Numbered from the stretch's first letter, positions 39,039-61,410 are shown. The stretch is 64,000 nucleotides of DNA from Pseudomonadales bacterium (GCA_020632235.1 JACKFY010000002.1:11550-75549); one strand, 5' to 3'. Notes: generated by a model from the letters alone, not told the origin. Numbers and translations are program-made.

Positions 39039-39074
39039 TCACTATAGCAGGTGCGGTGTGCACTTGAGAAGAAG

Positions 39075-39400: not shown

Positions 39401-39458
39401 TCAACTAAAACAAACGAAGGGGTTTGCTCAATAGCTCCATCTGGAGTAAAATAACAGG

Positions 39459-40610
39459 GTGAAGAAAATACTACTACTGTGCTTTGCTGTATTGCAGATA
39501 GGCTCGTTTGTGATGCCGAGTCAAACCAAGGCGCAAGACATGTGTGGCGGCATTAGTGTTGAACCACCAATAGCATCACCACACCTAGATGGAGAGGTAC
39601 TCATCGTTAAAATAGCTGGATTTACAAATGGAGCATACAGAGAGTTTGCTATTACGGAAGACAGATTTGCCGCAATCACTCTTGAATCAGCAAGCGGAAC
39701 TGCTGTTGATGGTAAAATCACGCTGCAGTTTTCAGGCAACGGAGTAAAAAAACTTCTTTGGGCAGCGGATAGTAGAAAAATTTCTATGAACGGAGAAGGC
39801 TCTAATGACTGTGTTGTTCCAAATAGTTATTTCGAAATAGGTGAAAGTAGCACTAGTGGAAATCATTCTTGCGACCTCAACATTACCTATACAAACGATG
39901 AAAACGACACGTTCGGAAAATGGGGGTGCATAGACACCACAAGCGATTTTAGCATTAACGCTACTAACATTACAGACCCCCTGGGTGTGTTTTCGGGAAA
40001 TGAGGCAACATTACACTATGACAGTAACGCAGCTACCCTTGTTGATCTTGATGGTAACGGCAATTTTTTAAATCCTAAAATACTTCAATCAAATGAAACT
40101 AATTATGGCAATAACCATAGCGTGAGATTTGCTGTTGCAATAAGTGATTTAATTATTTACCACACGGCATGCGAAGAAACAGTCGGCACAATTGTCGAAT
40201 CATGCGCCAATGCCGTCACCCCCACCTCCACCACTCCCTTCCAACTTTGCTCCCAAATCCCCAATCCTGTCCAAAGGGCTGAATGCGAAACATGCGCTAC
40301 TACAGGAGGAGGTGACCCAGAAAACCCCGGTGGCGTCTGGACAGCAGTTGGCTGCATCAGCAAAGACCCTGCCTCTATCATCCAGTCACTCATCAAGGTA
40401 GGCCTGGGCATGTCTGGCGGCGTGGTGCTACTCACTTTCCTAGCTGGCGGCTTTATGCTCACTACTTCCCAGGGTAACCCTGAGGGCGTCAACAAGGCCA
40501 AAGAAATGATGACCGCCAGCGTGGTGGGCCTGGTATTCATGCTACTATCAATTAGTATCTTACAATTTATTGGCGTAACCGTACTACGAATACCAGGGTT
40601 TGGTACATGA
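39459..40610 (+). CDS. T4SS pilin-like protein (VirB2/TrbC-type C-terminal domain) with a ~280-aa N-terminal extracellular domain
   Basis: Signal peptide. C-terminus VGLGMSGGVVLLTFLAGGFMLTTSQGNPEGVNKAKEMMTASVVGLVFMLLSISILQFI: two hydrophobic helices flanking a GxxG/K-rich loop. Confidence 0.55.
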   Translation: MKKILLLCFAVLQIGSFVMPSQTKAQDMCGGISVEPPIASPHLDGEVLIVKIAGFTNGAYREFAITEDRFAAITLESASGTAVDGKITLQFSGNGVKKLLWAADSRKISMNGEGSNDCVVPNSYFEIGESSTSGNHSCDLNITYTNDENDTFGKWGCIDTTSDFSINATNITDPLGVFSGNEATLHYDSNAATLVDLDGNGNFLNPKILQSNETNYGNNHSVRFAVAISDLIIYHTACEETVGTIVESCANAVTPTSTTPFQLCSQIPNPVQRAECETCATTGGGDPENPGGVWTAVGCISKDPASIIQSLIKVGLGMSGGVVLLTFLAGGFMLTTSQGNPEGVNKAKEMMTASVVGLVFMLLSISILQFIGVTVLRIPGFGT

Positions 40611-41035
40611 GACAACTTACAATCACCCTTATTGGTACATGTTTGATACTATTTTGTACCCTCTTTGTGCCAAACATCACCCAGGCGCAAGGGGCTCTAC
40701 CTGATGGTTGGGTAGATGATGGTATTCCCCAAGAGGCATTTGACGCGGTCAACCCACTCGTGATTGAGCAAAGTAGTCAAGCACACCAACTCTCAACACC
40801 TGGTGGGATCGTCTCTCGCGCACTGGACTTCGCTTTTCCCATTGCTGGCATGGTACTGTTTGTGATGCTGGTTTGGGGTGGGTTTGAGATGTTGGCAGGC
40901 TCATTTGGTGGCGAGCAGTCACTGAATGCTGGAAAAAGCCGCGCCACCGCTGCTCTGGTAGGTTTCTTACTGCTGTTTTGCAGTTATTGGCTGATGCAAA
41001 TTATTCAATATGTATTTGGTATAGTTATTTTGTAG
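40607..41035 (+). CDS. T4SS pilin-like protein (VirB2/TrbC family)
   Basis: Signal peptide ending AQG. IAGMVLFVMLVWGGFEMLAGSFGGEQSLNAGKSRATAALVGFLLLFCSYWLMQII. Confidence 0.6.
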   Translation: MRQLTITLIGTCLILFCTLFVPNITQAQGALPDGWVDDGIPQEAFDAVNPLVIEQSSQAHQLSTPGGIVSRALDFAFPIAGMVLFVMLVWGGFEMLAGSFGGEQSLNAGKSRATAALVGFLLLFCSYWLMQIIQYVFGIVIL

Positions 41036-41523
41036 TGATAAAACGTATTTGCATCTTACTAGCTGCACTTCTTCTTTTAGGTGGCTTGTATGTTTTTTCC
41101 CATCACCCTGTGCAGGCACAAAGCTTTACCTGTTTTGAGCAGTGCGCGGCATTTTTTGGAGATGATACGCGATGTATAGGATTAGGGCTTCCTGCCTGCC
41201 CCCCCTGTACACCAGGAATAAGCGCGGGCACTGATCTTGGCGCCTGCCTCAAGCTTTCCAACGACACGCCCGTACGAGACGTCTACTCTAGCCCCTCAGT
41301 CCTGATCAACCTGGTGGTGCGCAATGTCTTTGTGCTAGCAGGCGTACTACTATTTGCTCTGGTGTTTTACGTGGGGTTCAAGATGCTCACGGGCGGTAAA
41401 AAAGGCTTTGAAGATTCGCGCAAAGCTCTCACTGCTGCCGTTGCGGGGTTTATTCTCATGTTTTCTGCCTACTGGATCATCCAGATTATCAAGTACCTAA
41501 CGGGCGCTGACATACCTATTTAA
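41035..41523 (+). CDS. T4SS pilin-like protein (VirB2/TrbC family), Cys-containing N-terminal region; GTG start proposed, ORF open from 40978
   Basis: LAGVLLFALVFYVGFKMLTGGKKGFEDSRKALTAAVAGFILMFSAYWIIQII. Confidence 0.5.
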   Translation: MIKRICILLAALLLLGGLYVFSHHPVQAQSFTCFEQCAAFFGDDTRCIGLGLPACPPCTPGISAGTDLGACLKLSNDTPVRDVYSSPSVLINLVVRNVFVLAGVLLFALVFYVGFKMLTGGKKGFEDSRKALTAAVAGFILMFSAYWIIQIIKYLTGADIPI

Positions 41524-41527
41524 TAGT

Positions 41528-41974
41528 ATGAAAAAATTACCACTCAGTTTTTCCAAAGCAATACTACTCTGTTTTATATTTCTGACAGCTTTACTAGCCC
41601 TCCCCCTCACCTCGCAGGTGAGGGGCCAAAGCTCTCTGGGCACCATCGATGTCCCTCCTGGCGTTGATGTCTACATCGCGCAATCTGGACTCTCGGATGA
41701 CGAGATCGCCATCATCTTTTTTATCAATCGTGGCATCTTGCTCATCACCGTTATCAGCGCCCTCTGGGCATCGCTGATGATCATCCTCGCCAGCTACACA
41801 CTACTCACCTCTCAGGGTGATACGGGCGCCTACACCAAAGTCAAGCAGTTATTTATCAACGCCGTCATTGGCCTACTACTCATACTGCTCACCTACACTA
41901 TTGCTGGCATCATCGGTCTACTTGTTTTTGGCGACCCAGGGTATATTTTAAATCCAGAATTGCCGCAGCCATGA
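41528..41974 (+). CDS. T4SS pilin-like protein (VirB2/TrbC family)
   Basis: Signal peptide. ITVISALWASLMIILASYTLLTSQGDTGAYTKVKQLFINAVIGLLLILLTYTIAGII. Confidence 0.55.
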   Translation: MKKLPLSFSKAILLCFIFLTALLALPLTSQVRGQSSLGTIDVPPGVDVYIAQSGLSDDEIAIIFFINRGILLITVISALWASLMIILASYTLLTSQGDTGAYTKVKQLFINAVIGLLLILLTYTIAGIIGLLVFGDPGYILNPELPQP

Positions 41975-42525
41975 GAAAACTTGTCCTTATTTTCATCCTG
42001 ATGTGCGTCACTATTATACCTAAAGCGGAGGTGTACGCTCAAAGCTCGGGCTGCAATTATGTCGGGCAATGTGTGGGAGGCAGAAGGTGCGAATGCGAGC
42101 TTGTCAACCCTACTACCGGCAACTGCACGTTGCTCAACCCTAGTGGGTCACTATGCGATACCTCAATTACTGGTGGAGTTGAGCCCCCTCAGGGAATAAC
42201 TGACTTTCAAGACAATAATGGCAATATTGTTGACATTGGCATCATCAACTTTGCCTCTCTTGCTATTCGAGCGCTCACCATAGTCTCTGGCATCTTCATT
42301 ATGTTTAACATCATTCGCGCTGGCTGGTACTACCTGATGGCCTGGGACAACACCGAGGCCACTGGCAAAGTAAAAGAGCTGCTCACCTACTCGGTCATTG
42401 GCTTGGGTGTGATTGCTACTGCCTACACTATCGCTGCGCTCATCGGCCTCATCATGTTTGGCGACCCCACGTTTATCCTCAACCCACAGCTATCTAGCGC
42501 TCTTTCAACTACCACTACCCCATAG
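41971..42525 (+). CDS. T4SS pilin-like protein with a Cys-rich N-terminal module
   Basis: Signal peptide; six Cys in the first 60 mature residues. ALTIVSGIFIMFNIIRAGWYYLMAWDNTEATGKVKELLTYSVIGLGVIATAYTIAALI. Confidence 0.55.
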   Translation: MRKLVLIFILMCVTIIPKAEVYAQSSGCNYVGQCVGGRRCECELVNPTTGNCTLLNPSGSLCDTSITGGVEPPQGITDFQDNNGNIVDIGIINFASLAIRALTIVSGIFIMFNIIRAGWYYLMAWDNTEATGKVKELLTYSVIGLGVIATAYTIAALIGLIMFGDPTFILNPQLSSALSTTTTP

Positions 42526-42552
42526 TCTGCTCTTTGCTATAATAGCCCCACC

Positions 42553-42933
42553 ATGCTACTACCCACCCTTATTGCCCAGTTTGGAGACGGCTTTCAGCCG
42601 GCGGTGGACAACAGCTACACCCAAAACGCCGACACTATCGAGGGTGCTACCAACAACACCGCTCTTGTTCTCTCCAACATCATCGGCATTCTCACCATCC
42701 TTGGCGGGCTGTTTTTTGTGGTCTATTTTATTATCGGCGCACTCAACTGGACACTGGCAGGCAATGACTCTGGCAAAGTAGGAAAAGCCATAGACCAAAT
42801 GCGCAACGCTACTATTGGTTTAGCACTCTTGGTGGCCTCATACGCTATTATCGGTGTTATTGGTAGCATTCTTGGGTTTAATATCTTTAATATTGCAGAT
42901 CTAATAAAAGGAGTTGCACCTGTAACAAACTAA
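42553..42933 (+). CDS. T4SS pilin-like protein (no obvious signal peptide)
   Basis: IIGILTILGGLFFVVYFIIGALNWTLAGNDSGKVGKAIDQMRNATIGLALLVASYAIIGVI. Confidence 0.5.
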   Translation: MLLPTLIAQFGDGFQPAVDNSYTQNADTIEGATNNTALVLSNIIGILTILGGLFFVVYFIIGALNWTLAGNDSGKVGKAIDQMRNATIGLALLVASYAIIGVIGSILGFNIFNIADLIKGVAPVTN

Positions 42934-42941
42934 AACCAAAC

Positions 42942-43451
42942 ATGAAAAAATTCTTTCAAACTTTCTCCGTTACGTTTTTATCACTCCTCATCTCTGTTCA
43001 GACAACCTTGGCTCAAGGAGCTGGAGGCGGTGGCGGAGGTACGGGCGGAGGAAGTGGTGGTTCTGGGGGTGGAGGCAATACTGGCGGTGGAGTAGGTGGT
43101 AGCGACCCTGTGTACGAGAACGGTATTATCACCAACCCCGTAATCGGCGACCTTGGCGCCTCTGGCGATGCAGCCTCTGGCAGCACGTTTCAAACATTAT
43201 TTGTACACTTTTGGCAGGTGATTATAATTATTGGTGCCGTAACTGTCCTCCTGATGTTCCTTTGGGGTGCTATTGAGTGGATTGCAGCCGGTGGTGACTC
43301 GGGTAAGATTGAGAAAGGGAGAAACCGCATCATCAATAGTATAATTGGACTCTTCTTACTTGTGTTTTCATTCATTATTATCAACTTTATTGGCTGGCTG
43401 CTCTTCCGGGGCTCATTCCAGATTCTTATATTTAATGTACCAACACCATAG
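42942..43451 (+). CDS. T4SS pilin-like protein with a Gly-rich N-terminal tract
   Basis: Signal peptide, a (G)n/GGS/GGT stretch, then IIIGAVTVLLMFLWGAIEWIAAGGDSGKIEKGRNRIINSIIGLFLLVFSFIIINFI. Confidence 0.55.
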   Translation: MKKFFQTFSVTFLSLLISVQTTLAQGAGGGGGGTGGGSGGSGGGGNTGGGVGGSDPVYENGIITNPVIGDLGASGDAASGSTFQTLFVHFWQVIIIIGAVTVLLMFLWGAIEWIAAGGDSGKIEKGRNRIINSIIGLFLLVFSFIIINFIGWLLFRGSFQILIFNVPTP

Positions 43452-43454
43452 CTT

Positions 43455-43931
43455 ATGATCTTTCAAACAACCATAAATCTTTCTCAAGAGGCTGCTGCAC
43501 AAAACCTCACTGGATATGACGCAGACCCCAGCGGCGGTATGGCCTTCCTCATCGGCCGTATTCTCTCTATTGCCATTGTTGTGGGTGCCGTTCTCCTATT
43601 GTTGTATCTTGTTTGGGGTGGCATTGAGTGGATCGCATCTGGCGGTGATAAGGGCAAGCTAGAGTCTGCCCGCAGCAAGATCACCCAGTCAATTATTGGC
43701 ATGATCGTCTTAGCTGGCTCCGTTGCTCTTTTCATGCTGGTGCAAGCGTTTCTTGGTTTTCAAGTCTTGCAATTTAATTTTGTAGGAGGGAGCAGGAATC
43801 CTGGAGGAAATACACCAAATTGTAATTATCAGACACAAACAACATGTAATGCTGCCCCTGGCTGTACCTGGATAATTGATAATAATTTTACACCACCAAA
43901 TGAGTTTTGTATGCCGGATGGAAATGGTTGA
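43455..43931 (+). CDS. T4SS pilin-like protein with a Cys-containing C-terminal tail
   Basis: LSIAIVVGAVLLLLYLVWGGIEWIASGGDKGKLESARSKITQSIIGMIVLAGSVALFMLV, then a tail with five Cys. Confidence 0.5.
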   Translation: MIFQTTINLSQEAAAQNLTGYDADPSGGMAFLIGRILSIAIVVGAVLLLLYLVWGGIEWIASGGDKGKLESARSKITQSIIGMIVLAGSVALFMLVQAFLGFQVLQFNFVGGSRNPGGNTPNCNYQTQTTCNAAPGCTWIIDNNFTPPNEFCMPDGNG

Positions 43932-44062
43932 CAATAACTAAACTATAGGATACAATAAAACCAGTAAAAAGTATTACTTGACTATACCTTGGCTACATGC
44001 CTATAATGTCTTGCCAAGGAGGCAGTACGTAAAAATAGTAGTACACAAATAAAAAGGAAATA

Positions 44063-44479
44063 ATGCTACAAAAAGCACGAAAATCTCTCAACACAGCACT
44101 GGTAACTGCTGGTGCACTCTTGGCAACAAGTATGCCAGCACTTGCACAAGATCCACAAGATCCTATTGGCACTGTTACAGTTCAGAGTACTGATGGTTAT
44201 TTTTCAAATTTTGGCGACCTCATAAGCGATCTTGTAGTTATTGCAATGGCAATTGCTGCATTATTAGTATTTGTTTATCTAATCTGGGGTGGCATTGAAT
44301 GGATCACTTCCGGTGGTGATAAAGGTAAAACTGAGTCTGCTCGCAACAAAATCACTGCAGCAATTATCGGTCTTATCATTCTTGCAGCTTCATATGCCTT
44401 GCTTAGAATTGCTTTAGAGTTTATTGGCGTAGATGGTGGCCTCCAGGGCATACTCAATAGAGCTGGTGGAAACAAATAA
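44063..44479 (+). CDS. T4SS pilin-like protein; candidate major pilin
   Basis: Signal peptide. VIAMAIAALLVFVYLIWGGIEWITSGGDKGKTESARNKITAAIIGLIILAASYALL. Followed by the strongest intrinsic terminator in the array. Confidence 0.6.
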   Translation: MLQKARKSLNTALVTAGALLATSMPALAQDPQDPIGTVTVQSTDGYFSNFGDLISDLVVIAMAIAALLVFVYLIWGGIEWITSGGDKGKTESARNKITAAIIGLIILAASYALLRIALEFIGVDGGLQGILNRAGGNK

Positions 44480-44500
44480 CTTATTGTAGATATACAGGAA

Positions 44501-44540
44501 ACCCCTCACTTTAATTTTTTAACCAAGGTGAGGGGTTTTT
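44501..44540 (+). terminator. Rho-independent terminator (AAACCCCTCAC ... GTGAGGGGTTTTT)
   Basis: 8-11-bp GC-rich stem followed by T5, 22 nt after the stop of the 44063 gene. Confidence 0.7.
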
Positions 44541-44657
44541 CGTTCCAGTTATGCTAAAATATGTGTGGTGTTACAGTACAACTACTTCAATGTATCCTCT
44601 ATTGATTTTTATAGGATATTTTGATATAATAAATCCGTTTACACATAAAATACTCTT

Positions 44658-45224
44658 ATGAAGAAACTTTTTCTCTCTGCTCTACTTGGTTTTTGTCTGA
44701 TGCTTACGCCTAGCGTGTATGCCCAGGGCATGCTCAACACCCCTAGTGACCAAACAGGTGACGTGGTAGCACGCAAAGATGGTGACATACTGTACCTAAC
44801 CACCTCGGTTACTGACAATAGCGCAAGCGGTACTACCGAGCAAACAAGCCAGACAACCACTACTACCTCCAGCACCCAACAAGATGGCGATGTTGTACTG
44901 AATACCTACTTTGGCCAAATTGTGATACCACAAGGCTACTTTCATAACTTTGGAGAGCTTTTCACAAAGCTCCTCACTGCAGCCATGGCGGTGGCAGCTC
45001 TGCTCACGCTTGGGTTTCTCATCTGGGGCGCGTTTAAGTGGATCACCTCTGGCGGTGATAAAGGGAAAATTGACTCAGCTCGCTCGACCCTTATTGCCGC
45101 GGTGGTAGGGCTCATTATTGTCGCTGCCTCGTACGCTATTTTACTACTAACCCTCAACTTCCTCGGCATTGAAGGTGGCCTCAATGGCCTACTACAACGG
45201 GCTGGCTCTGCCATGAGCAACTAA
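44658..45224 (+). CDS. T4SS pilin-like protein, paralog of the 44063 gene with a longer Thr-rich N-terminal region
   Basis: AAMAVAALLTLGFLIWGAFKWITSGGDKGKIDSARSTLIAAVVGLIIVAASYAILLL...GIEGGLNGLLQRAGS; shares the GYFxNFGxL and C-terminal motifs with 44063. Confidence 0.6.
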   Translation: MKKLFLSALLGFCLMLTPSVYAQGMLNTPSDQTGDVVARKDGDILYLTTSVTDNSASGTTEQTSQTTTTTSSTQQDGDVVLNTYFGQIVIPQGYFHNFGELFTKLLTAAMAVAALLTLGFLIWGAFKWITSGGDKGKIDSARSTLIAAVVGLIIVAASYAILLLTLNFLGIEGGLNGLLQRAGSAMSN

Positions 45225-45266
45225 CCTTTTACCTTCCTCAGCTCAAAATCATGCTATACTCCTGGT

Positions 45267-45674
45267 ATGAAACAACATCTGTTTGCTAAAAATCTTTTCA
45301 TCACACTCACGCTTGTATTGTGGAGTGTTTTTTTGCCCGTCCAGGCACATGCCCAGACCAGCGCCTGGGGTGGCACTTGCGTGGGTGGGCCAGACCGTAA
45401 CGTAGCGACTATTCAGGGTCTGGAGTGCTTAGTAGCCAATGTGTTTGTGGTGATTATCACCCTTATCGGCCTGGCTGGGTTTGTGATGTTTATTATTGCC
45501 TCGTTTCGCTGGATGACGGCAGGCAGCAACACCGAAGGCATCAAAAAGGCGCGTGCCACCATGACCTACGCGGTGGTGGGCATTGTGGTCTCGCTTTCTG
45601 CCTTTATAGTGCTCAATGTCCTGGCAGACTTTACTGGAGTTGAAGCCATCAAGGTGTTCCGTATTCCCAGCTGA
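45267..45674 (+). CDS. T4SS pilin-like protein
   Basis: Signal peptide. VFVVIITLIGLAGFVMFIIASFRWMTAGSNTEGIKKARATMTYAVVGIVVSLSAFIVLNVL. Confidence 0.55.
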   Translation: MKQHLFAKNLFITLTLVLWSVFLPVQAHAQTSAWGGTCVGGPDRNVATIQGLECLVANVFVVIITLIGLAGFVMFIIASFRWMTAGSNTEGIKKARATMTYAVVGIVVSLSAFIVLNVLADFTGVEAIKVFRIPS

Positions 45675-45679
45675 AGTTC

Positions 45680-46035
45680 TGGGTTTTAGCATTCCCCTCT
45701 TTTCAAGAGGGGCTAGCTGAAAGCCAGGGGTGTTTTAGTCCTTCCCCTTGTAAGGGGAAAACTCAAGTGATAACTTGAGAAAAGGGTTTAGCCCTCCGTT
45801 TCATAAGGGGACCCGCCTGCATCAGCTGTGCTGAAAGCACTGCGGGCAGGGACATCAAGCGAAGCGTGATAGAGGGGTTTAGCGCTTCTCCCGAACTGAG
45901 TCGGGACTTTGTCATTTCAACTCCCGACCTGTCGGGATTGGAGAAATCCCACCCAGATGTCCCTGCCCGCAATGTCTGCGACATAGTCGTAGCAGGCGGG
46001 TCTACTACGCTCGAAATGACATTCTAGCTTTCGGT
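45680..46035. repeat. composite hairpin-repeat element (largest family member), immediately 5' of the giant hydrolase gene
   Basis: CCCCTCTTTTCAAGAGGGGC + TAGCTGAAAGCCAGGGGTGTTTT; CCCCTTGTAAGGGG + AAAACT-CAAGTGATAACTTGAG-AAAAGGGTTTAGCCCT; CCGTTTCATAAGGGG; GTGCTGAAAGCAC; GTCATTTCAACTCCCGACCTGTCGGGATTGGAGAAATCCC. Confidence 0.6.
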
Positions 46036-46039
46036 CCAC

Positions 46040-49000
46040 ATGACAACCAAACCAGCACAACCCACTCAGGCTTCCAGAGCCAAAGCTGGTATAATCGAGG
46101 CCATGTTGGCCCTACGATCTCCCACTCGGTTTTTGTTGTCGTGCCTTTTGGCAAGCAGTCTCTTGCTGCTCTCGGTAAGTGGAGTTTTGGCAGGTAAAGC
46201 GGGCATTAACATTGGCGACCACTTTGGTGAAGTAGACCAAGCAGCACAAATCACCCGTGATGGTGGTTGGATAGTCGTCATGGCACAGCCGGGCGACTGC
46301 ATGGATCTCTCGCAAATGATGGCAGATCACCCCAACACCAACTTTGTTATCCGCGGACACCACCCTCACACCGACGTAATGTCTCCTGAACACGCAAAAG
46401 CATGGGCCTACACCCTAGCCAACATGAATACGGGCGGAAGAAAAGTATATTTTTACCCTGTGAACGAGCCATTTACCCGGGGGGCGCAGGAGGGGTTTTC
46501 CAACGACCCTGCCACCACCGCTCAGATGGTGAACGCGTATGTTGACACTCTTCTCTCTACTGCTCCGGGACTAGACCAAAAGGTGGTATTTCTCTCGCCC
46601 ATGATAAACAGAACACACCCAAACTATGAAAGCAATGTGGACTTGTTGGGCGGAGCAGGTTTTTACAATAAATTTTCTGGTATATCAATGAATTTATATG
46701 ATTTTCAAGGCTGCGGAGGGCCGTTTTGCCACCCCAACAAACATCTTAACTCAGGAAGATTTTTAGAAGACAAAGCGCTCGAAGGCATTGATGCTGGCAA
46801 GCAGGTCTACGCTGTCGAATCTGGCGTGGTAAATGGAAACGTCGTCTACATAGACACCCAACTGCGAACGTACTACGAGGCTGGTTATGGCAGCCCTGGG
46901 CCATTTCTTGACTCCAGGCTGGCAATGACCGCCACATTTTCCTACAACCCCCACGCCAGCGACTGGAGCATCTACGGTACACAGACCGCTAGTTTTTTTC
47001 AGGGGTTGGGTGGTGGAACTGCGCCAATTCCAGAAACCTTTGACGAGGAAGCGTGGTTTGCTGACAACAACATACAAGACAAAATTGACGCAGGCGAGAT
47101 CATCCAGTGTGACGAGTGCGGCTTGAGCCCTTCCACCCCCGACGGGGCTGGCTACTGTGCGGCTGTGGGCAACTATAGTACGACGATCTTCCCCGAGTAC
47201 GAATACGAAAACACCGAGTACTACATCCATCCTATTTGCGAAAATGAAGAGGTGTGCCGAAGTGGTAGTTATGAAGAGGCAACCGTGGAGTATAAAAACA
47301 GCCTCATAAACCAAGGGTATGAGGCCTACTGCGCCAACGAAGAAGTGCAAGTACTCGGCACTACGGGGCAAAACTGGGATCTCTACCTATCACTCATTGC
47401 CTCTGGACAACAACCCGGGAGTCAGCAAACAACACAAAGCGAGTACGTGCTTGACGCCACCAACATGAAGGTGCCGCTATTCAGAGATGTATCGGGTAAA
47501 CGCTGGCGCATGACATCGCTGGAAGAGTTTTTTGGATTTAGAGATATTTACACCAACAAAGACACTGAAAGCCTCATCAACAGCGCTATGATTGAAAAAC
47601 TAACTTCCCAAGAGCAGCGCTGTCAGCTGTCGGTGCAGATCTTGCGGGAGACCAAGCAATTTTGCCAGCGAGAAGAAAATGCAGATACAGCCTCGTGCTA
47701 TCTCAATACTCAGATACCAGACCCTGCCGGCTCGGTAATTGGCAACATGAAGAGACTCGACGCCCTCTCTCTTTTTGAAGGACAAGGCACAACATGCAGT
47801 GAGCTTGTCCAGCGTCAAGACACAGACCCGCTAAAAGCCGCCATTATGAATAATCCATTGTATCTTGAAAGGCTCTATAGACTGGGGTTCTTGGTAACCT
47901 CAGTACGGCAGGTTGCGCCAAATAGCTACACAGGCAATCCCGATACTTTTTTTAGTTTTTTTTCGAATAACTATAGTTCTGGGGTGGGGCTCGCCTACGC
48001 CTCTAGCATGAACGATGTTTCGATCACTGCATTTAAAATCCCTGATGTTGGGCTGGGTCATGACTACGAAAAACTCCAAAACGAAGATGGTTCTACAGCG
48101 GATTTGCAAGACACCAGCATATATACCGACCCATTGTACAACACCAAGCTATCGGTGCTCAGCACCAAGCAACAGCAGTACGCAGCCACCATGAGTGCAG
48201 AGTATAAAGATATACTCAGGCACAACTCATACACCGAGTACGAACGTCCAGATGGCTCTGTCGTTACTGGTCCTCGTCCGTTTGGCGGTAATGACCTCAT
48301 CAACTGCCCTTTCACTCCTGGCTGTGGCGTACCTCATTTTGACCCCAGCACGCCAGTTGACCCGCTTTTTCGTGCAATTATAGACTTGGTCAATACCAAC
48401 AAAGGCATTTACGGCACAGAAGACAAAGATGAAGACGGCAAGCCCGATGTTATTCCTGGCAGGACCTACACAGTAGAAGACATAGCTGATAGAGACAAAG
48501 GTTTGTATCTAAACTGTAAGCCAGAAATAGTCGAGATCACCCCCGAGGGTGTGACGCGCATTTCAGATCCATCGACCATTGATGAGTCTGACCCCTATAG
48601 AAACCTAGAAAATGACCTGGGCGAAACAAACGAACACATCGCGTTGTCTCTGGCAAACAGACTCAGAAACGGTGACACGAGCACTCCTATTTCGAGAACA
48701 AACTTTAGCCCATTTACTTCTATTATCAAATCAACTAATACAGAAAAAAATAGGTACGCTATGATCAACACCTATGTGGTGTATCCGGGAGAGTACGAGG
48801 CAAACGAGATTGCAAATGCTATTCGCAGCCCCTTTGTGCCCTTTGAAGACGCAGAAGAGATTGACATAAACAGACTCAAAGGTTGCGACCCCTACGAAAC
48901 AGACTGTCCGCCACTGCTACAACCAGACGGATCGGTCAAACCAAAAATCCAGAGAGGATTTGAGCTCATTGGAGGTATTTTTCAGTCAAGCTGGGGAAGT

Positions 49001-49750
49001 GTTGTCTTTCCATTCAGGGACGTCACTATCTCGTGCCCACCTGGCGAACCAGACTGCAACTACAAAGAGGCTGGTGCTGGAGTCATTGCGTCCAACCTTA
49101 CCAACACACTGATGATTCCTGGCGAAAAACTAGGTTTTTGGACCAGAGAGATCCAGAAATCACTCAATACCGCCGTCAGCACCCAACGCTCATACCTTGA
49201 CAGCTGTCAGACACTAGAGCAATTTTTACTGGGCACCTGCGGCGGGGCAACAAGTAGTGGTTCTACCACCACTCTAGCCAGTAGTGTTGTACCCACTCCA
49301 ACCATACTAGGAAACCACCAGTGCATACCTGTTCCAGAGGGAAACCCTTACTGCAGCATCTCTGCTATTCAAAGCTTTACGGGCTGGGATGAAGCTCGTG
49401 CCCGCACAGCGTCCATCATCTGTAATGTTGAAAGTGGGGGTAACCCAAATGTAGCAAACACCAGTTGTTTGGTAGGTGGTACTGTTGACTACAGCATCGG
49501 TCTGTTTCAGATCAACCTACTTGCTCACGGTACACCTGGCATTCTGTTTGATGCAAACGGGCGAACAAACGGTAGTCCTGGCTATGACCCAACAGCAGTC
49601 CCCTGCAGTGTTGCCAATGCAGCGCTCCTCGAGCAAAACGAAACGTACTACTTTATTCCTGATAATAACTTGAGAAAAATGGTGGAGTTGTCAAATGATG
49701 GGACCAACTGGCAGCCTTGGGCAGCTGCTAGCTACTGCGGGATCAACTAG
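46040..49750 (+). CDS. giant secreted protein (1236 aa) with a C-terminal Rpf/SLT-like lytic transglycosylase domain and an N-terminal glycoside-hydrolase-like (NEP motif) region; putative T4SS-associated cell-wall hydrolase
   Basis: Signal peptide ~residues 22-50. C-terminus IICNVESGGNPNVANTSCLVGGTVDYSIGLFQIN...W (ESGGN...GLFQI transglycosylase signature). N-terminal region FVIRGHHPH...VYFYPVNEP... Confidence 0.7.
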   Translation: MTTKPAQPTQASRAKAGIIEAMLALRSPTRFLLSCLLASSLLLLSVSGVLAGKAGINIGDHFGEVDQAAQITRDGGWIVVMAQPGDCMDLSQMMADHPNTNFVIRGHHPHTDVMSPEHAKAWAYTLANMNTGGRKVYFYPVNEPFTRGAQEGFSNDPATTAQMVNAYVDTLLSTAPGLDQKVVFLSPMINRTHPNYESNVDLLGGAGFYNKFSGISMNLYDFQGCGGPFCHPNKHLNSGRFLEDKALEGIDAGKQVYAVESGVVNGNVVYIDTQLRTYYEAGYGSPGPFLDSRLAMTATFSYNPHASDWSIYGTQTASFFQGLGGGTAPIPETFDEEAWFADNNIQDKIDAGEIIQCDECGLSPSTPDGAGYCAAVGNYSTTIFPEYEYENTEYYIHPICENEEVCRSGSYEEATVEYKNSLINQGYEAYCANEEVQVLGTTGQNWDLYLSLIASGQQPGSQQTTQSEYVLDATNMKVPLFRDVSGKRWRMTSLEEFFGFRDIYTNKDTESLINSAMIEKLTSQEQRCQLSVQILRETKQFCQREENADTASCYLNTQIPDPAGSVIGNMKRLDALSLFEGQGTTCSELVQRQDTDPLKAAIMNNPLYLERLYRLGFLVTSVRQVAPNSYTGNPDTFFSFFSNNYSSGVGLAYASSMNDVSITAFKIPDVGLGHDYEKLQNEDGSTADLQDTSIYTDPLYNTKLSVLSTKQQQYAATMSAEYKDILRHNSYTEYERPDGSVVTGPRPFGGNDLINCPFTPGCGVPHFDPSTPVDPLFRAIIDLVNTNKGIYGTEDKDEDGKPDVIPGRTYTVEDIADRDKGLYLNCKPEIVEITPEGVTRISDPSTIDESDPYRNLENDLGETNEHIALSLANRLRNGDTSTPISRTNFSPFTSIIKSTNTEKNRYAMINTYVVYPGEYEANEIANAIRSPFVPFEDAEEIDINRLKGCDPYETDCPPLLQPDGSVKPKIQRGFELIGGIFQSSWGSVVFPFRDVTISCPPGEPDCNYKEAGAGVIASNLTNTLMIPGEKLGFWTREIQKSLNTAVSTQRSYLDSCQTLEQFLLGTCGGATSSGSTTTLASSVVPTPTILGNHQCIPVPEGNPYCSISAIQSFTGWDEARARTASIICNVESGGNPNVANTSCLVGGTVDYSIGLFQINLLAHGTPGILFDANGRTNGSPGYDPTAVPCSVANAALLEQNETYYFIPDNNLRKMVELSNDGTNWQPWAAASYCGIN

Positions 49751-50634
49751 CTATCACTCCCCAACTTCTTCGCCTGCTTGACAGGCAGCTCTGCCCCAGA
49801 AGACACAATGGTGCGCTTTGGCTGCGGACTGCGTGAAACCACCTGTTCTTGCACGGATGTGCCAGAGTTGCTCTGGGCGGGCTTGCTGCGCCGCGCGCCA
49901 AGTCGCAGTAGCGACGCGACTGTCTCAAATGTCTGAGCTGTAGCACTCAAAGAGGTAAAGTACTGGGTTTGTGTCTCGATGCCGCGTAAAAACGCAGTTG
50001 CTGCTTCTTCTGGTATGGGTAGCTGGTTGTTTAGTAATGCAACTGCCGTTGTCTCACTCAGACTGGCAGCATTGTCGGGTTTAATAGTCAGTGCAGCAGT
50101 ATTGCTAGCAGTACTACCCACCTGGACAATGGTCGCCTTTTCGTAGGCATCCTCATATCCTTCATACACTGCACCCAAAGAAGAAAGTGAAGATACACCC
50201 ACCAAAAATATGGCATCTACCTCCAAACCCGCATAGTCATAACTTAGCTTTGAGGTATCGAGCGGCAGGGCGCCAGCCTGCGGCTTGATGGTGAGATAAA
50301 ACGTGCTGGAGTCATCACTGATGTGATAACTAACTTTATCCACCGCTTCTTCAGAGTAGGGGAACGATACGATCAGGCTTTGATTACCCACCTCTGTTTG
50401 GGTTTCAGAAAGCACTTCAAAACCTGCGGTTTCCACCCTTGGTTTTGCTGGACTAGCCAAGCTGACTGCTTTACCCGCTGCTTTCAGTGAAGTGTATACC
50501 CCAGCAGTAGCAGCCAAGACATCAGTGGTTGCATTGCCTGGATACACCACGAGAACAGAGCTAACTTCTTCGAGTAGTTCTGTGAGTTGGTTTTGGTCAG
50601 TATTCATGCCGTTAGTATAGCAAATAGATGGCAA
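49747..50634 (-). CDS. hypothetical protein, possibly a degenerate DHH/NrnA-like fold
   Basis: Pattern LVVYPGNATTDVLAATAGVYTSLKAAGKAV resembles the DHH N-terminal layout but lacks the catalytic Asp/His residues. Confidence 0.4.
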   Translation of the reverse strand: MPSICYTNGMNTDQNQLTELLEEVSSVLVVYPGNATTDVLAATAGVYTSLKAAGKAVSLASPAKPRVETAGFEVLSETQTEVGNQSLIVSFPYSEEAVDKVSYHISDDSSTFYLTIKPQAGALPLDTSKLSYDYAGLEVDAIFLVGVSSLSSLGAVYEGYEDAYEKATIVQVGSTASNTAALTIKPDNAASLSETTAVALLNNQLPIPEEAATAFLRGIETQTQYFTSLSATAQTFETVASLLRLGARRSKPAQSNSGTSVQEQVVSRSPQPKRTIVSSGAELPVKQAKKLGSDS

Positions 50635-50716
50635 AATAGCTAGTACTATATCAAAATAAAGTATGCTACACTATCTAGTGTACGTACATGACCAACGCGG
50701 TCAAGAAAGGAAATGT

Positions 50717-51451: not shown

Positions 51452-51602
51452 TCCCCTACCTTTGTCACTCTGCCGCGCCCACCTCCTTGTCTCTCTGAAC
51501 TTGTTTCAGAGACTACCCTCACGCCTGTCAACGCGGATGCTGAATCTCGTTCAGCATGACAGGCTAAAACGTGGAGAAGGGTTTACCCCTTCCCACTACC
51601 GT
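51452..51602. repeat. composite hairpin-repeat element (family member)
   Basis: TTGTCACTCTGCCGCGCCC; CTGTCAACGCGGATGCTGAATCTCGTTCAGCATGACAGG palindrome; GGGTTTACCCC. Confidence 0.5.
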
Positions 51603-51612
51603 ACTATCAGAT

Positions 51613-51867: not shown

Positions 51868-52290
51868 TGCCTCCGTTGTATTGAAGTGGGTTCTCCCCGA
51901 ACCAGGAACAGAAAAAGCTATTACGCTTTTTGACCTTCACGCCAGTAAAAAAATCGAGCTATACGCACCAATCCTGCTATTATACGAGGTGACAAACACC
52001 ATCGCCCTAAAAAAAGACCTCAGCTCTAAGCAGGTAAAAGATGCGCTCGCCATAATATTAGATGAAAGAATTAACCTTGTGTCTATGGAGATATATATGC
52101 AAAAAATAGCCCAAGCTGTTCGCGGCTAGTCCATCTCTGCCTATGACGCCAGCTATGTGGTGCTGGCTCAGCAGTACGACTGTCCTCTCGTCACCGCCGA
52201 CACAAAGCTCATTTCGGCAGTGGGTAAACCCTTTGTCCAAACTCTTGAAGCGCTAGACATCCCCTCTTTTTCCCTCACCATAAAGTGGTG
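51851..52290 (+). pseudogene. PIN-domain toxin (VapC-like) interrupted by a frameshift/stop near 52125
   Basis: N-terminal frame MALIVDASVVLKW...LLLYEVTN ends at 52129. The C-terminal PIN segment SISAYDASYVVLAQQYDCPLVTADTKLIS continues in another frame. Confidence 0.65.
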
Positions 52291-52365
52291 AGGGGGGGGT
52301 TTCATATCCCCTCTTTCAAAGAGGGGCGGGCTAAAAGCCGGGGGTGTTTTTCCCCCCAGATACTA
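52270..52365. repeat. composite hairpin-repeat element (family member), immediately 5' of the VirB6-like gene
   Basis: CACCATAAAGTGGTGAGGGGGGGGTTTCAT + CCCCTCTTTCAAAGAGGGGC + GGGCTAAAAGCCGGGGGTGTTTT, near-identical to the 23.4-kb and 45.7-kb modules. Confidence 0.6.
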
Positions 52366-52380
52366 TATAATCGCCCCTGC

Positions 52381-54108
52381 ATGCGAAAGAAGCTACTTGC
52401 TCTACTAGCTTTTGTTGTGGTGGGTGTTATTTTTTCCCTCTCTCCTTCTGTAGCTGTAGCCCAAGATGATGCCGACAATAACTTTGGTTATGCTATTGCC
52501 CAAGAAGAAATCACTGCTTATCGCCAAGCTACTGAAAACTGCGATACTCCCTCTCTTGAGTGTCTGGTGCACAACACCACCCGCTTTACCGCAATAGAAA
52601 TCATCTACAATATTATAGGTAGAGAAGACTTTCTTGAAAATGACAGCATAGGATGCGACCCAGCAGACCCCGGGTGTCCCCCTCCTACATCACAAGCTCC
52701 CGCAGATGGCGGTTTTTTAGGTGATATTAACAGCTTTATTGGTAGTATGTACGCCAATCCAGCCGCAAATACCAGAACGTACGTCTCTGACGTGCTTGAC
52801 TCCGCCAACATCGCCCAGCCAGCCTACGCCCAAGGCATTGGCTTTGCATCACTTAACCCCATTCTTTCCATGTGGAAAAAGTTTCGAAACATTGCCTACC
52901 TTGCTTTTGTGGTGCTGTTCATCGTGATCGGCTTTATGATTATGTTTCGCACCAAAATCGGCGGGCAAAACGCGGTCACTACCCAGCAGGCTATTCCCAG
53001 CATTATTGTCAGTTTGCTCTTGGTCACGTTTTCATACGCCATTGCAGGCCTCCTCATAGACCTGATGTACCTATCTATGTTTATGATTGCCGGTATATTT
53101 AACGGCACTGGCTACAGGGGTGGCGACATCATCAGCTATGATATTTTCAACCTCGCAGGCGAAATGTTTAACGCTGGGAAGAACTCATTTGGTGTGGGGG
53201 GCAATATTGTAGAAACTGTGCTCACCGCTGCTAGCGGCAGTACTCTGCTTGGGACGATTGGCGGTATTTTTGGCGGCATAACCCTTGTGCTTGTGCTTGC
53301 CATAGCTATGCTCATCGCTACTTTTAAGCTATTTATAGAGCTACTCAAGTCATACGCTGCTATTGTGCTCAATGTAGTGGCGGCACCCATCATCCTAATG
53401 ACTGGCGCAATACCAGGCAAAAACCCCTTTATGGGGTGGTTTAAAGGCATGGTGGGCAACCTCGCTGCCTTTCCTACCGTCTTACTCATGCTGGTGATGT
53501 ACAAAGAGTTTGTAGAAAATGCGAGTGGGGCGGGAGGGTTTGTGCCACCGTTTACCCTGCAATCTGGCGCAAGCGGAGTAATAGGCTCTATCATGGGCTT
53601 GGCTATTATGCTGGCGTTGCCAGAGATTGTGAAAAAAGTGAAAGAAGTTCTGGGGGCAAAAGATGGATTTGGTGTTGATATTGCAAAAACTGCTGCAGGC
53701 AGAGCTGAAGACTACCTCCCAATGCCATTTATGGCTACTCGCGGTGTTGGTGGCAGTCTAAATGCCATGAGATTAGCTAGAAAAGACAACATGGGTCTAG
53801 CAGATACTTTGAGAGCTGGAAGAGATGGGTATACAAGAATTGATGGCGAAGGACAACTCATGGGTGGTTTACAAGGAAGTTCAAAAGGGTTGTTTGGAGG
53901 AGCAAAGGCTGGATATGACTTTGGCTATAATATAAGAAAAAATATTGACAGAGTAGCAGACGGAAGGCTTGTTGATGTCGAAAATCAAAACAACCTTTTG
54001 GCAAAAATTCAAGAACAAACTAAGCAAAAAGAGCCACCAAAAGGATTTGTTTCTGTTGGTGGAAAACTAAAAAGAGCATCGAGCTATAAACCACCAGAAT
54101 CGCATTAA
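52381..54108 (+). CDS. VirB6/TrbL-like polytopic membrane protein (T4SS channel component candidate)
   Basis: Signal peptide, ~170-aa extracytoplasmic region, six or more TM helices, hydrophilic C-terminal tail. The upstream ORF extension (from 52285) lies inside the repeat element. Confidence 0.5.
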   Translation: MRKKLLALLAFVVVGVIFSLSPSVAVAQDDADNNFGYAIAQEEITAYRQATENCDTPSLECLVHNTTRFTAIEIIYNIIGREDFLENDSIGCDPADPGCPPPTSQAPADGGFLGDINSFIGSMYANPAANTRTYVSDVLDSANIAQPAYAQGIGFASLNPILSMWKKFRNIAYLAFVVLFIVIGFMIMFRTKIGGQNAVTTQQAIPSIIVSLLLVTFSYAIAGLLIDLMYLSMFMIAGIFNGTGYRGGDIISYDIFNLAGEMFNAGKNSFGVGGNIVETVLTAASGSTLLGTIGGIFGGITLVLVLAIAMLIATFKLFIELLKSYAAIVLNVVAAPIILMTGAIPGKNPFMGWFKGMVGNLAAFPTVLLMLVMYKEFVENASGAGGFVPPFTLQSGASGVIGSIMGLAIMLALPEIVKKVKEVLGAKDGFGVDIAKTAAGRAEDYLPMPFMATRGVGGSLNAMRLARKDNMGLADTLRAGRDGYTRIDGEGQLMGGLQGSSKGLFGGAKAGYDFGYNIRKNIDRVADGRLVDVENQNNLLAKIQEQTKQKEPPKGFVSVGGKLKRASSYKPPESH

Positions 54109-56434: not shown

Positions 56435-59400
56435 ATGTTTGACGCTCGTACTGACTCGCCAGAAACAACAGAGCAAACCGCTCAAGACAACCAGGGTGGG
56501 CAAAGCATACCCAGGGGGCACGTACTTGTCTCCGACCTCAAGCATCTCAAGACTGGCCTGGCAGGAAATGACTGGCAGCAGCTAGAGAAATTGCTCTTGT
56601 CTATCCTTGGCGCACTTGATGGTGAACACCACCTGCTGCATGACCAAAAAATAACCATTGCTCTTGAGGATGGAATGGGAGAACTGACCACAACCAACGA
56701 GCCGCACTCGGCTTTTGGGCGAGAAGAACAAAAAGTCTGGTTGTTTTTTACCGATGTTCTTAGTATTTCTCTTGACGCGCTCGAGCAGCTAGAGGTGCCT
56801 GGATACTCAGAGAGTGAGGTTGCAGCAAAGCTAAACAGCTTTTCAAACAAAACAGGGGCAGACTCTGGCGTTATAGATGAAGTAGAGCTGGTGGATAATC
56901 AAAACCTGCGCTTTGAGGTATTTGAGATTGTACAAGCTGCCTACGAGGCAGTTTTGGCCCATATCAATGCACAAACGAAACAAGAGCCGCCAGAAAAAGA
57001 AACAGATAAAAGCGAAACAACTTCTGATGATCCAGGGTTAAAAAAGCAACAAAGGGGTGATGCTGTAACTCTTTCTGGGGCAAAAGTACGAAGAAAAGAA
57101 ACAACGGAGGGAGGCGGTGAAACAGGCCAAACCCAACCAGCCCAGCAAACACTACAAGAAGAAAAGCTCTACGGCACGCGCACTGCTGCCCAGGCCTTCC
57201 AGTACCAAGCTGCCTGGCTGCAGGCTGCAGGCATGCATCAGATTGCTACCCAGCTAGGGATTGATATTGACAGCCTGGGGGCAGAACAACAAGCGCTACT
57301 GCGCACTGCGCTACAAAACGCCATAGGCCAGTATCTGAGCGATCCGCGCAACTTGCAAAACCTAAGCGACCTAAAAAATGCCGACATATACCGCCTAGAG
57401 GCATTACGAGAGATAACGAGACTGCTGAATGGACAAAAACTCCAGATTGTCTTGACTAGAGTAGATGAGCAAGGAGTAGAAGCACAAAGCGAGACAAGCG
57501 TTACCCTAGACCAACCCACCACCGTTGACGACACACAACTACTCTCCCAGGCAATACGCCAGCACTTCCCCAATGTAAGTAACCAACAAATTGTCACTAT
57601 TGAGCAAATGCTGCACACACTAGAGGTACTAAACGGCTCTAGCGTTACTATCACCCCCACTATTGTTATTGAGATCTTTGAACAAGCCACCGCCATTCGC
57701 CTCTCTCCAGACGACCCGCGCCTGCTCTCACTCGTTGCTTTTTTCAAGACCTTTGTGGTGATGCAGGTCAAGGAAGCTGCCCTGATCACAGAAAATAAAG
57801 ACACAGAAAGTGGTATTACTATTGCCGGTACTCCCAGAGAAAGCCTAGAGCAACACTACTCACCTCGCACTATCGTATTAGCAGAAACAAGCAAAGATGA
57901 GCCAGAAGTTCTCCCCGCAGAGCAAAGAGAAAATGTGGCTCGCCGGGCTGGCCGGCTGGGGGATCGCCAGTTTTTGAAAGTACAAAAAATGTATGGCCCC
58001 GTGTGGAACAGCTTTACTGCCGAGCAACAAGAAGCTATCGCCGCTTATATCCAAAGCAAAAACCCCCAGTTTACCCCCTACCGAGACCCCATCAGCAAAG
58101 AACTGCTCTTTCCCATCGAGTTTACCTGGCTCTCGGGCAGTGAGTTAAAGCGTGTTGTTGAGAAAAAAACGAGTGGTGGGGTTGTTATTGACTCGGCGCA
58201 GGCAAATAACTCTGTGGCAGAGTTTGAGCGACTGCGGATAGATCCGAAAATCCAAGAGCAACTTGAGGTAATCGAGCTAGAACAGCTCTACTCCCAGGCA
58301 TTGCTTGAACAACTCGATGAGCAGCAAAAGCAAATCTTATTAAACCAGCTGGTACAGGAACAGATCGCCAAGTACCAGGCTCAACTAGAGTACTTTGCGG
58401 CAGTAGAACAGTTGGAGCAGCAGATCTTCATTCAACAAAGACGTGCATATATAGAGCAACAACTAGCACTTCTAGAGGCTGGAGAAGCACAACTAGCAGA
58501 TTTTCAATATGCCCAGATGATGGGTGGGATTGTCTCCCAAGAACGACAACAAGCAGCTTGGGAAGCAGCAAAGGCGGGTGGTGAGCCTATTCCAGAAGGA
58601 ACTACTCCCAGTCGATTTTTCAAACGAGGGCAAACTGCTGGAAGTATAAGAAACACTACTGTCAATAAAGCAACAAAGCGCGCTCAAGATCTAAAAGAGT
58701 TAGCAAAGCTAGCTGCTGCTGCGGGCAGAGTAGCAAGTGGCGACATCAAGGCGCTTGTTGATGTTATTCGCAATAAGCAATTTAGAAAACTTGTGAAATA
58801 CCTCGGCTTAGGAGGCATCGCGGGAGGGGTTATTTCTTATATTCTGGGGGGACTAAAAGCGCTCGCAGGATTTGTGGGTGGTGGAGTTATTGGTGGTACT
58901 GTTGGTGGATTCATTGGCTTTTCAATTGGAGGTCCGCTTGGAATTATACCAGGCATTCTTGTCGGCTCAGCAATCGGAGGGACTATAGGCTCAGCAATTG
59001 GAGGAACTATGGGAGGGTGGCAGGGTGGGTTCACTTCCTCTATCGGCACCACAGAGGGTCTTTCAAATATCCAGGCTGCCACTGGCGGTGTCAGCAACAT
59101 CGTGACAGGAACAGGTGGACAAGCAGCTGGCGCAGGAGGATCTACTCTCACTACCTCAGGTGGAGGTGCGGGAGGATTTGGGACAGCTACAACTACCACA
59201 GCTGCCACTGGTGGTGGAGGCGTTATTGCAAGCGCAACGGGCGCGGCTGCAGCGGCCGCCAGTGCTCTGGGTATTGGCGTACTAGCCCCAGCCATGGGTA
59301 TTGCCATGATTGCTGGTATGTCGCTCTATAACCTTTGGATCATCCAACACTCATTTTTAGCACCCCTACCCCTGGGCACACCTCTCACCGCCCAGCCAAG

Positions 59401-61325: not shown

Positions 61326-61410
61326 ATGACCCTTTTTGGACTATTTTTGTCACCACTGTGTGCTATGGTCTAGTGCTCGCGCTCGTGGTGCGCTATACTT
61401 GCCAGAGAGT

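Follow-up and report, generated by a model that had tools for sequence, protein, structure and literature searches.

A predicted exported giant protein beside a type IV secretion pilin array joins a clan GH-A-type barrel to a lysozyme-like domain

Patescibacteria, ultra-small bacteria with a life attached to other microbes, account for a sizeable part of bacterial diversity, and the component that opens the cell wall for their type IV secretion system (T4SS) has so far been poorly defined. The question of what this component may be is raised by a large gene in a stretch of 64,000 nucleotides (nt) from a genome labelled 'Pseudomonadales bacterium' (GCA_020632235.1, JACKFY010000002.1:11550-75549); this whole stretch is referred to as the window, and all positions are counted from its first letter. 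Positions 46040..49750 (+) encode a protein of 1236 amino acids (aa). In a reading made from the DNA by itself (the sequence-only reading), it had been described as a secreted protein that joins a glycoside hydrolase (GH)-like N-terminal region to a C-terminal transglycosylase. An exported protein in which a GH-type barrel and a lysozyme-like domain are joined, and which keeps a conserved position beside pilin genes, is a promising candidate for the wall-opening enzyme still missing from the T4SS machine.

The gene is a complete, ATG-initiated open reading frame (ORF) of 1236 aa plus the stop, and re-translation returned exactly the coordinates, strand, and length given earlier. Met22 (46103) is a possible alternative start. 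The product is identical over its full length to a protein of a metagenome-assembled genome (MAG) at NCBI, 'hypothetical protein H6774_01985', which is encoded on a 245-kb contig. A miscalled or chimeric ORF was considered and ruled out, since full-length homologues exist at 46-47% identity. A hydropathy scan showed a sole hydrophobic segment, located at the N-terminus (about aa 28-59); the stretch PTRFLLSCLLASSLLLLSVSGVLAG (46121..46195, +; aa 28-52) is a Sec signal peptide or an N-terminal membrane anchor, and either a cleaved signal or an anchor is possible. Such a segment is also found in 124 of 132 long homologues, and on this basis the description of the protein as secreted was retained. 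The protein contains 29 cysteines and has an acidic isoelectric point in every part, which is consistent with an exported protein. BLAST and hidden Markov model comparisons with the collected homologues separated three modules: the barrel (aa ~40-375), a middle region (~376-1075), and the C-terminal domain (1092-1236). When the whole protein was searched against Pfam, NCBIfam, and PDB sequences, PF18896 was the sole match.

The N-terminal domain (46196..47059, +; aa ~53-340) is modelled with high confidence as a (beta/alpha)8 barrel of clan GH-A type, outside every named GH family tested. AlphaFold2 with a 30-sequence alignment gave a predicted local distance difference test score (pLDDT) of 90.7 and a predicted template-modelling (TM) score of 0.91, and the model consists of eight alternating strand/helix units, as in the TIM barrel of clan GH-A. 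With this model, Foldseek retrieved 55 PDB matches at E <= 0.001, nearly all of them clan GH-A glycosidases; the best 18 all belong to GH-A, and a few TIM-barrel enzymes of other kinds appear lower in the list. The top match is PslG (GH39-like, 5bx9; E 1.4e-7), and further matches include GH53 galactanase, GH5_4, GH5_18, GH128, GH10, GH79 heparanase, and GH51. One of the neighbours, 6ubc, is a non-catalytic GH128 oligosaccharide-binding protein. TM-scores to the PDB matches are about 0.45-0.55, at 9-16% sequence identity. Among viral models (BFVD), phage proteins with a GH5 domain were the best matches (E 4.5e-9).

Clan GH-A is defined by the '4/7' arrangement, in which one catalytic Glu follows strand 4 and the other lies on strand 7. 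The segment VYFYPVNEP, which the sequence-only reading had compared with the catalytic-acid motif of this clan, is located at aa 136-144 (nt 46445-46471). Within it, N142-E143-P144 (46463..46471, +) contains Glu143, the predicted general acid/base; in the model, N142 and E143 come directly after strand 4 (model residues 97-100). Glu260 of VYAVESG (46817..46819, +) is the predicted catalytic nucleophile and lies within the strand-7 segment at model residues 216-226 (aa 255-265), and Y220 is on strand 6. Three residues such as NEP carry no meaning by themselves; their weight comes from conservation among homologues. Across 89 homologous domains, N142 is conserved in 100%, E143 in 97%, and P144 in 92%, so that the proviso attached to the earlier proposal, that the NEP segment might prove non-conserved, did not hold. 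In the same domains, R105 (99%), Y220 (100%), E260 (100%), and W309 (97%) are equally well maintained, and none of the seven varies among 48 full-length members that were sampled independently. Therefore, the earlier comparison of the NEP motif with GH-A barrels was right as to the clan. The barrel is predicted to act as a retaining beta-glycosidase in which Glu143 serves as acid/base and Glu260 as nucleophile.

The barrel shares with clan GH-A enzymes the (beta/alpha)8 fold, the Asn-Glu pair after strand 4, the strand-6 Tyr, and the strand-7 Glu; it differs from them in its low TM-scores and sequence identity, and in that no GH Pfam model matched the query or the family consensus at E <= 1. 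No Pfam or NCBIfam model covers the domain. GH5 (PF00150), GH128 (PF11790), GH26, GH39, and GH53 all stayed below the sequence threshold, with isolated or sub-threshold matches in 2-3 relatives: PF11790 matched in few relatives only (2 of 48 members, best E 1.4e-7) and PF00150 in one family member (E 2e-4). A weak sequence match was obtained with the GH26 mannanase 2whk (E 0.017), in which the NE of the query is aligned to the acid/base Glu of HEMNGE. The families of clan GH-A have beta-linked non-peptidoglycan glycans as substrates, and we therefore infer a second, non-murein target for this protein. After the barrel lies a small Cys knuckle (C357, C360, C373; 47069..47164, +), which forms a beta-hairpin in the model and gave only a weak Zn_ribbon_LysW match, under the cut-off (E 0.016-0.055).

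The C-terminal domain (49313..49747, +; aa 1092-1236) corresponds to PF18896 (SLT_3, 'Lysozyme like domain'), with 32 bits for the whole protein against a Pfam gathering cut-off of 27, and 39.2 bits (E 9.5e-10) for the domain alone; nine of nine domain relatives match as well. The two motifs noted earlier, ESGGN and GLFQIN, are placed by translation at aa 1131-1135 (nt 49430-49444) and aa 1154-1159 (nt 49499-49516). In the nine homologues of the domain, E41, S42, N45, N50, D60-Y-S-I-G-L-F-Q (60-67), N69, H73, and five cysteines (domain numbering) are invariant. A nine-sequence profile searched against PDB sequences found C-type lysozymes first, with human lysozyme at E 3e-4 over residues 23-129, a match that spans the whole domain; hhalign gave a probability of 90% (E 1.5e-6, 53 columns) for the same pair. 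In the alignment to human lysozyme, ESGgN corresponds to WESGYN (Glu35) and DYsiGLFQIN to DYGIFQIN (Asp53), together with four Cys positions. Glu1131 of ESGGN (49430..49432, +), the predicted catalytic acid, is aligned to lysozyme Glu35, and Asp1150 of DYSIGLFQIN (49487..49489, +) to lysozyme Asp53 (Asp52 in hen). Both equivalents of the C-type catalytic pair are thus invariant.

Lytic transglycosylases use a single catalytic Glu, while C-type lysozymes have a hydrolytic Glu/Asp pair; since the pair is present here, the sequence comparison favours a muramidase rather than a lytic transglycosylase. The class of the domain is read from sequence profiles only, because the AlphaFold2 model of this region is poor, and by these profiles the domain sits between SLT and C-type lysozyme within the lysozyme superfamily. 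PF00062 (C-type lysozyme) did not match the query at E <= 1, and matched two of nine relatives (best E 0.0019). SLT (PF01464) remained below its threshold, at 12.5 bits against 21.3 (E 0.11), and matched five of nine relatives at E >= 0.016; in the nine-domain alignment, E-S and G-L-F-Q are present, and the AYN-type third SLT motif was not seen. The domain has in common with Rpf domains a small size, membership of the lysozyme superfamily, and an E(S/A)GGN-like motif. No Rpf family matched in the Pfam scan of either the whole protein or the C-terminal domain, and similarity to Rpf was rejected at an hhalign probability of 0.5% against one RpfB catalytic-domain sequence that was entered by hand. 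Therefore, of the earlier label 'Rpf/SLT-type transglycosylase as in VirB1', the lysozyme-like superfamily was upheld by PF18896 above its cut-off, while the Rpf and SLT parts were not.

With C-type lysozymes (GH22) the domain shares the pattern ESG.N...DY..G(I/L)FQIN, the catalytic pair, four cysteines, a length of ~130-145 aa, and a disulfide-rich character; it differs in its weak scores (E 3e-4), in other insertions, and in being bacterial and fused. To our knowledge, GH22 is almost exclusively animal. Two enzymological novelties may thus be present in one protein: a GH-A-type family that lacks a Pfam or NCBIfam model, and a bacterial lysozyme domain with the Glu/Asp pair of animal C-type enzymes. 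A homologue search with the C-terminal domain alone as the query returned three proteins only. In P0003, P0004, and P0015, which are 46-47% identical to the 1236-aa protein through the middle region, PF18896 is replaced by a different C-terminus with SLT-like E-S/G..Q motifs (PF01464 E 0.004 in P0004). These sequences suggest that muramidase modules may be swapped at the C-terminus among close homologues.

Between the two domains lies a family-specific middle region (47165..49240, +; aa 376-1067), which is acidic and contains 16 cysteines, followed by a Ser/Thr/Pro-rich linker (49241..49312, +; aa 1068-1091) ahead of the C-terminal domain. Conserved blocks with strongly conserved motifs occur at aa ~376-790 and ~1010-1075, and the stretch between the blocks is variable. 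The region was common to 26 other collected proteins, some of them with a different N-terminal domain or none; P0015 and P0017 carry it without the N-terminal domain. No Pfam, NCBIfam, or PDB sequence matched it, and the consensus also found nothing in Pfam. A Foldseek search with the model of aa 375-1236 returned noise only (BabA adhesin, E > 1). The middle of the protein, previously put at ~800 aa, is shorter (~700 aa) and remains unassigned by sequence and by fold; it is treated here as a family-specific extracellular scaffold. Three proteins that share this region (P0013, P0133, P0135) begin with another domain, marked by AGPNEPD and ITETGPW motifs, which, with weak profile matches (E 1e-5 to 6e-4), looks like a second, divergent barrel of GH-A type.

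How widespread is the family? When aa 1-420 were run exhaustively with phmmer against 1.84 billion representative proteins, the barrel-domain family proved rare, with 123 clusters, in nearly all of which the match begins within ~50 residues of the N-terminus of a protein of 650-1800 aa. Architectures were counted in 145 collected proteins, of which 132 have the barrel domain. The barrel alone with other C-terminal regions accounts for 112 proteins, barrel + middle for 14, barrel + middle + C-terminal domain for three, and barrel + C-terminal domain without the middle for three; ten have the middle with no barrel match counted, and three consist of the C-terminal domain alone. From this spread, the barrel is the constant element. 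Its pairing with the lysozyme-like domain recurs in two different architectures and is uncommon (6 of 132 barrel-domain proteins). Among 48 full-length members, CHAP domains were found in two and SLT_3 in three, both of them partner domains of the PrgK/TraG type. Therefore, the protein is less unusual in form than was first thought, as it belongs to a recurrent Patescibacteria family, although its combination with this C-terminal domain is indeed uncommon.

The position of the gene provides the link with the T4SS. Directly upstream is an array of 11 consecutive, co-oriented small ORFs (39459..45674, +), ten of which match PF18895 (T4SS_pilin), seven above the Pfam cut-off; the statement that the gene directly follows a pilin array is therefore accurate. 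The array has a conserved left border, a 578-aa protein with a SpoIID domain (37302..39038, -). Further downstream, the window contains PrgI (VirB3-like; 61336..62613, +) and a TrsD/TraC-like ORF that runs off its end (62626..64000, +), for which PF26593 was found on the identical gene in L015. A look-up with the 340-aa protein encoded just before PrgI returned a 10-kb contig that likewise stops in the TraC-like gene. Pilin array, PrgI, and TrsD/TraC-like gene together mark a T4SS cluster. Synteny was compared in 14 loci that encode homologues, from MAGs labelled WWE3, Saccharibacteria, Microgenomates, Pacebacteria, Woesebacteria, Gottesmanbacteria, and 'Patescibacteria group', as well as four labelled Pseudomonadales or Gammaproteobacteria. 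A pilin array is directly upstream of the homologue in 10 of these 14, which bears out the proposed T4SS link. The usual order is SpoIID (-), pilins, the large protein, in some cases a 295-aa gene (-), a 607-aa gene, further genes, PrgI, and the TrsD-like gene; in L003 and L004, the homologue instead follows the giant protein with an M23 peptidase domain. In L007, a VirB4-type ATPase (P-loop_TraG, AAA_10, DUF87) comes after the TrsD-like gene, and by analogy a VirB4 gene would be expected just beyond the end of the window.

Upstream of the large gene is a highly structured 365-nt gap (45675..46039, +) that contains four GGKTTTAGY-plus-hairpin units. When 371 nt were folded, the minimum free energy was -173.8 kcal/mol (z -8.6). 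A 44-nt core (CTTTGTCATTTCRACTCCCGAC..GTCGGGAYTGGAGAAATCCC) of the gap has a second copy, 91% identical, ahead of the first pilin gene (39218-39261). It occurs only twice in the window, in the same orientation, in the gaps 45675-46039 and 39039-39458. The repeat element that had been noticed ahead of the gene thus comprises the four units and the 44-nt core. No Rfam family matched the gap, and a search of the related loci did not recover the hairpin core of the 44-nt element. The element hints at a shared regulation of the pilin operon and the large gene, and could be regulatory for both; a small mobile repeat is the alternative.

T4SS-associated multidomain wall hydrolases are a known kind of protein, and the new part here is the GH-A-type domain that no Pfam or NCBIfam model describes. 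PrgK of pCF10 and TraG of pIP501, both from Gram-positive conjugative T4SS, and VirB1 of Gram-negative systems are likewise encoded inside a T4SS-type locus, and share with the 1236-aa protein an N-terminal hydrophobic segment and, behind it, wall-cutting domains outside the cytoplasm, including a muramidase module of the lysozyme superfamily; PrgK and TraG also carry CHAP, as do other members of the barrel family. However, there is no detectable sequence homology to these proteins, none of them has a GH-A barrel, and the 1236-aa protein is much larger, with ~700 aa unassigned. It also follows a pilin array, whereas the Gram-positive systems have none (PMC10633639). The T4SS of Patescibacteria are homologous to the conjugation systems of monoderms, and VirB1 homologues are seldom linked to virB4 (PMC12102498).

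A further close system is that of Ca. Southlakia epibionticum, the one genetically tractable species, whose T4SS cluster is essential for epibiotic growth; it contains a pilin series, the lysozyme/CHAP protein SEML1_0006, and the peptidase protein SEML1_0007, both essential in transposon sequencing, and has no recognisable coupling and relaxase proteins (PMC10633639). There too, the T4SS cluster of a Patescibacteria member encodes wall hydrolases along with a series of pilins, and SEML1_0007 is resembled by a second giant wall enzyme of our locus, a 1291-aa protein (56435..60310, +) with a C-terminal M23 peptidase (aa 1171-1262), ~1150 aa in which no domain was recognised, and conservation in several related loci. 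SEML1_0006 is different, as it consists of phage-tail-lysozyme, glucosaminidase, and CHAP domains with no GH-A barrel, and adjoins virB4 rather than following the pilins. Neither PMC12102498 nor PMC10633639 reports a GH-A-type protein after a pilin array, and the literature searched does not mention PF18896 or link GH22 or glycoside hydrolases to these loci. What is added here is a recurrent family, so far unannotated, whose place behind the pilin array is fixed, together with a confidently modelled fold and putative catalytic residues that lend themselves to direct mutagenesis. Hundreds of giant proteins now called 'hypothetical' may be better annotated as a result, and the family may provide candidate enzymes with which to study or disrupt the contact between epibiont and host.

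What, then, may the protein do? The best-supported reading, to which we give an even chance, is that it is a Sec-exported accessory enzyme of the Patescibacteria T4SS/pilus locus with two glycan-cutting domains and the producer's own envelope as its primary target. The ORF, its domain boundaries, the fold, the conserved residues, and the synteny are observed, while the catalytic activity, the substrates, the part in T4SS or pilus assembly, and the choice between own and host wall are all predictions in this scheme. The barrel would cut a beta-linked, non-peptidoglycan polysaccharide of the envelope, and the C-terminal domain (Glu1131/Asp1150) would act as a muramidase that hydrolyses the N-acetylmuramic acid-N-acetylglucosamine backbone of peptidoglycan. 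The Cys-rich middle of ~700 aa and the Ser/Thr/Pro linker would serve as an extracellular scaffold or spacer. Together, these parts would make a local opening in the glycan layers through which the pilus or T4SS can pass, as VirB1, PrgK, and TraG do elsewhere, and the muramidase would be an optional add-on. Since the barrel is conserved across lineages, a conserved, self-derived substrate can be argued. PslG, the top structural match, is an example of the hydrolases that polysaccharide-synthesis operons commonly carry. We lean towards the producer's own envelope because of this conservation and because such operons commonly carry a hydrolase of this type.

Several observations weigh against this scheme. 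At TM-scores of ~0.5 and 9-16% identity, the barrel cannot be assigned to a specific GH family, nor can its substrate be read from one. The AlphaFold2 model of aa 375-1236 (20-sequence alignment) has a pLDDT of 56.6, with low confidence in the C-terminal domain as well. Consensus scans of the upstream gap turned up nothing promoter-like and a single weak hairpin of terminator type (45889-45906), and promoter and terminator sites in the region are no more frequent than by chance. Any VirB4 gene of this genome would lie outside the 64-kb window. A role on the producer's own wall may be redundant, since SpoIID and the M23 giant are already present in the locus. The region after the barrel is also strongly variable (other C-terminal regions in 112 of 132), which fits the diversification of targets as well as it fits the drift of a scaffold.

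This last point leads to a serious rival, less probable in our estimate than action on the producer's own envelope, in which the protein would be a 'drill' directed at the host: transported by the T4SS pilus or exposed along with it, it would digest the surface polysaccharide of the host with the barrel and the peptidoglycan with the lysozyme domain, for contact or for a conduit. The same two glycan-cutting domains would serve for this purpose, in a large protein with a flexible linker, and the post-barrel region is swapped between lineages (SLT_3, weak SLT-like, CHAP, unknown) as would be seen under target-driven diversification; the producer's own wall could then be left to the other hydrolases of the locus. 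Among viral models, the nearest structural neighbours are phage GH5-type proteins, and in Ca. Southlakia epibiotic growth requires the lysozyme and peptidase genes linked to the T4SS (PMC10633639; PMC12102498). However, the barrel is 30-45% identical across distant Patescibacteria classes whose hosts probably differ, which argues for a conserved substrate; beyond the Sec-type N-terminus no secretion signal was recognised, and export of proteins by these T4SS would have to be assumed. A more elaborate form of the same idea appears somewhat more doubtful still: that the barrel is a new GH family restricted to Patescibacteria, a 'VirB1 substitute', which, with the lysozyme-like muramidase it carries here, forms a host-digesting pilus drill during epibiotic attachment.

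Two further explanations are both improbable. A general secreted polysaccharidase for nutrient scavenging, with its adjacency to pilins coincidental, would agree with GH-A enzymes being typical polysaccharide degraders, and with the lack of a clear promoter or terminator signal tying the gene to the pilin operon; Patescibacteria also rely on external nutrients (PMC10633639). This is disfavoured because of the synteny: 10 of the 14 loci, which span several candidate phyla, keep the position directly after the pilin array. Moreover, the barrel is fused to wall hydrolase domains rather than to carbohydrate-binding modules, and the 44-nt element is common to the upstream gaps of this gene and of the pilin operon. 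Marginally less probable again is a structural role, as an adhesin or at the pilus tip, in which the enzyme-like domains would bind glycans and not cut them. It would explain the location directly after the pilin genes, where other systems place minor pilins or tip proteins, as well as the large middle region of unassigned function, and 6ubc provides a structural neighbour that binds without catalysis. However, a purely adhesive role is disfavoured by the conservation of the catalytic residues: the two Glu of the barrel and the Glu/Asp pair of the C-terminal domain show little or no variation, which is unexpected if catalysis had been lost.

The lineage of the window itself deserves a comment. 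All matches from named genomes are from Patescibacteria lineages or from MAGs labelled gammaproteobacterial. L006, L011, and L014 are MAGs labelled Pseudomonadales or Gammaproteobacteria, like the source 'Pseudomonadales bacterium'. These labels look like taxonomic mislabels, as the pilin family, synteny, and named relatives are of Patescibacteria type. A gammaproteobacterial origin, despite the NCBI label, was rejected since all relatives and the synteny are Patescibacteria-type. A partial 23S rRNA gene at 1-1498 (-) covers model positions 1-1129 over 1498 nt; the ~370 extra nt look like an insertion of the type reported for candidate-phyla-radiation rRNAs. A tRNA-Ile gene with a TAT anticodon is located at 14949-15023 (-).

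The remaining genes of the locus are less well characterised. Within the pilin array, a 184-aa ORF (41971-42525, +) lacks a PF18895 match but has a counterpart at the corresponding place in at least seven related loci; a divergent pilin and an assembly factor are both conceivable. A convergent 295-aa gene with no Pfam match (49747..50634, -) adjoins the large gene in six loci. A 607-aa protein (52285..54108, +), which also has no Pfam match, has a homologue in 11 of 14 related loci, downstream in nine. The 295-aa and 607-aa proteins may be uncharacterised T4SS or pilus components. Also downstream are a YtxH gene (50663-51157), a 737-aa gene (54138-56351, -), and a 340-aa gene (60303-61325). 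Between the YtxH and 607-aa genes, two small overlapping ORFs of 98 and 92 aa (51571-52129, +) look like a toxin-antitoxin pair by their size and arrangement.

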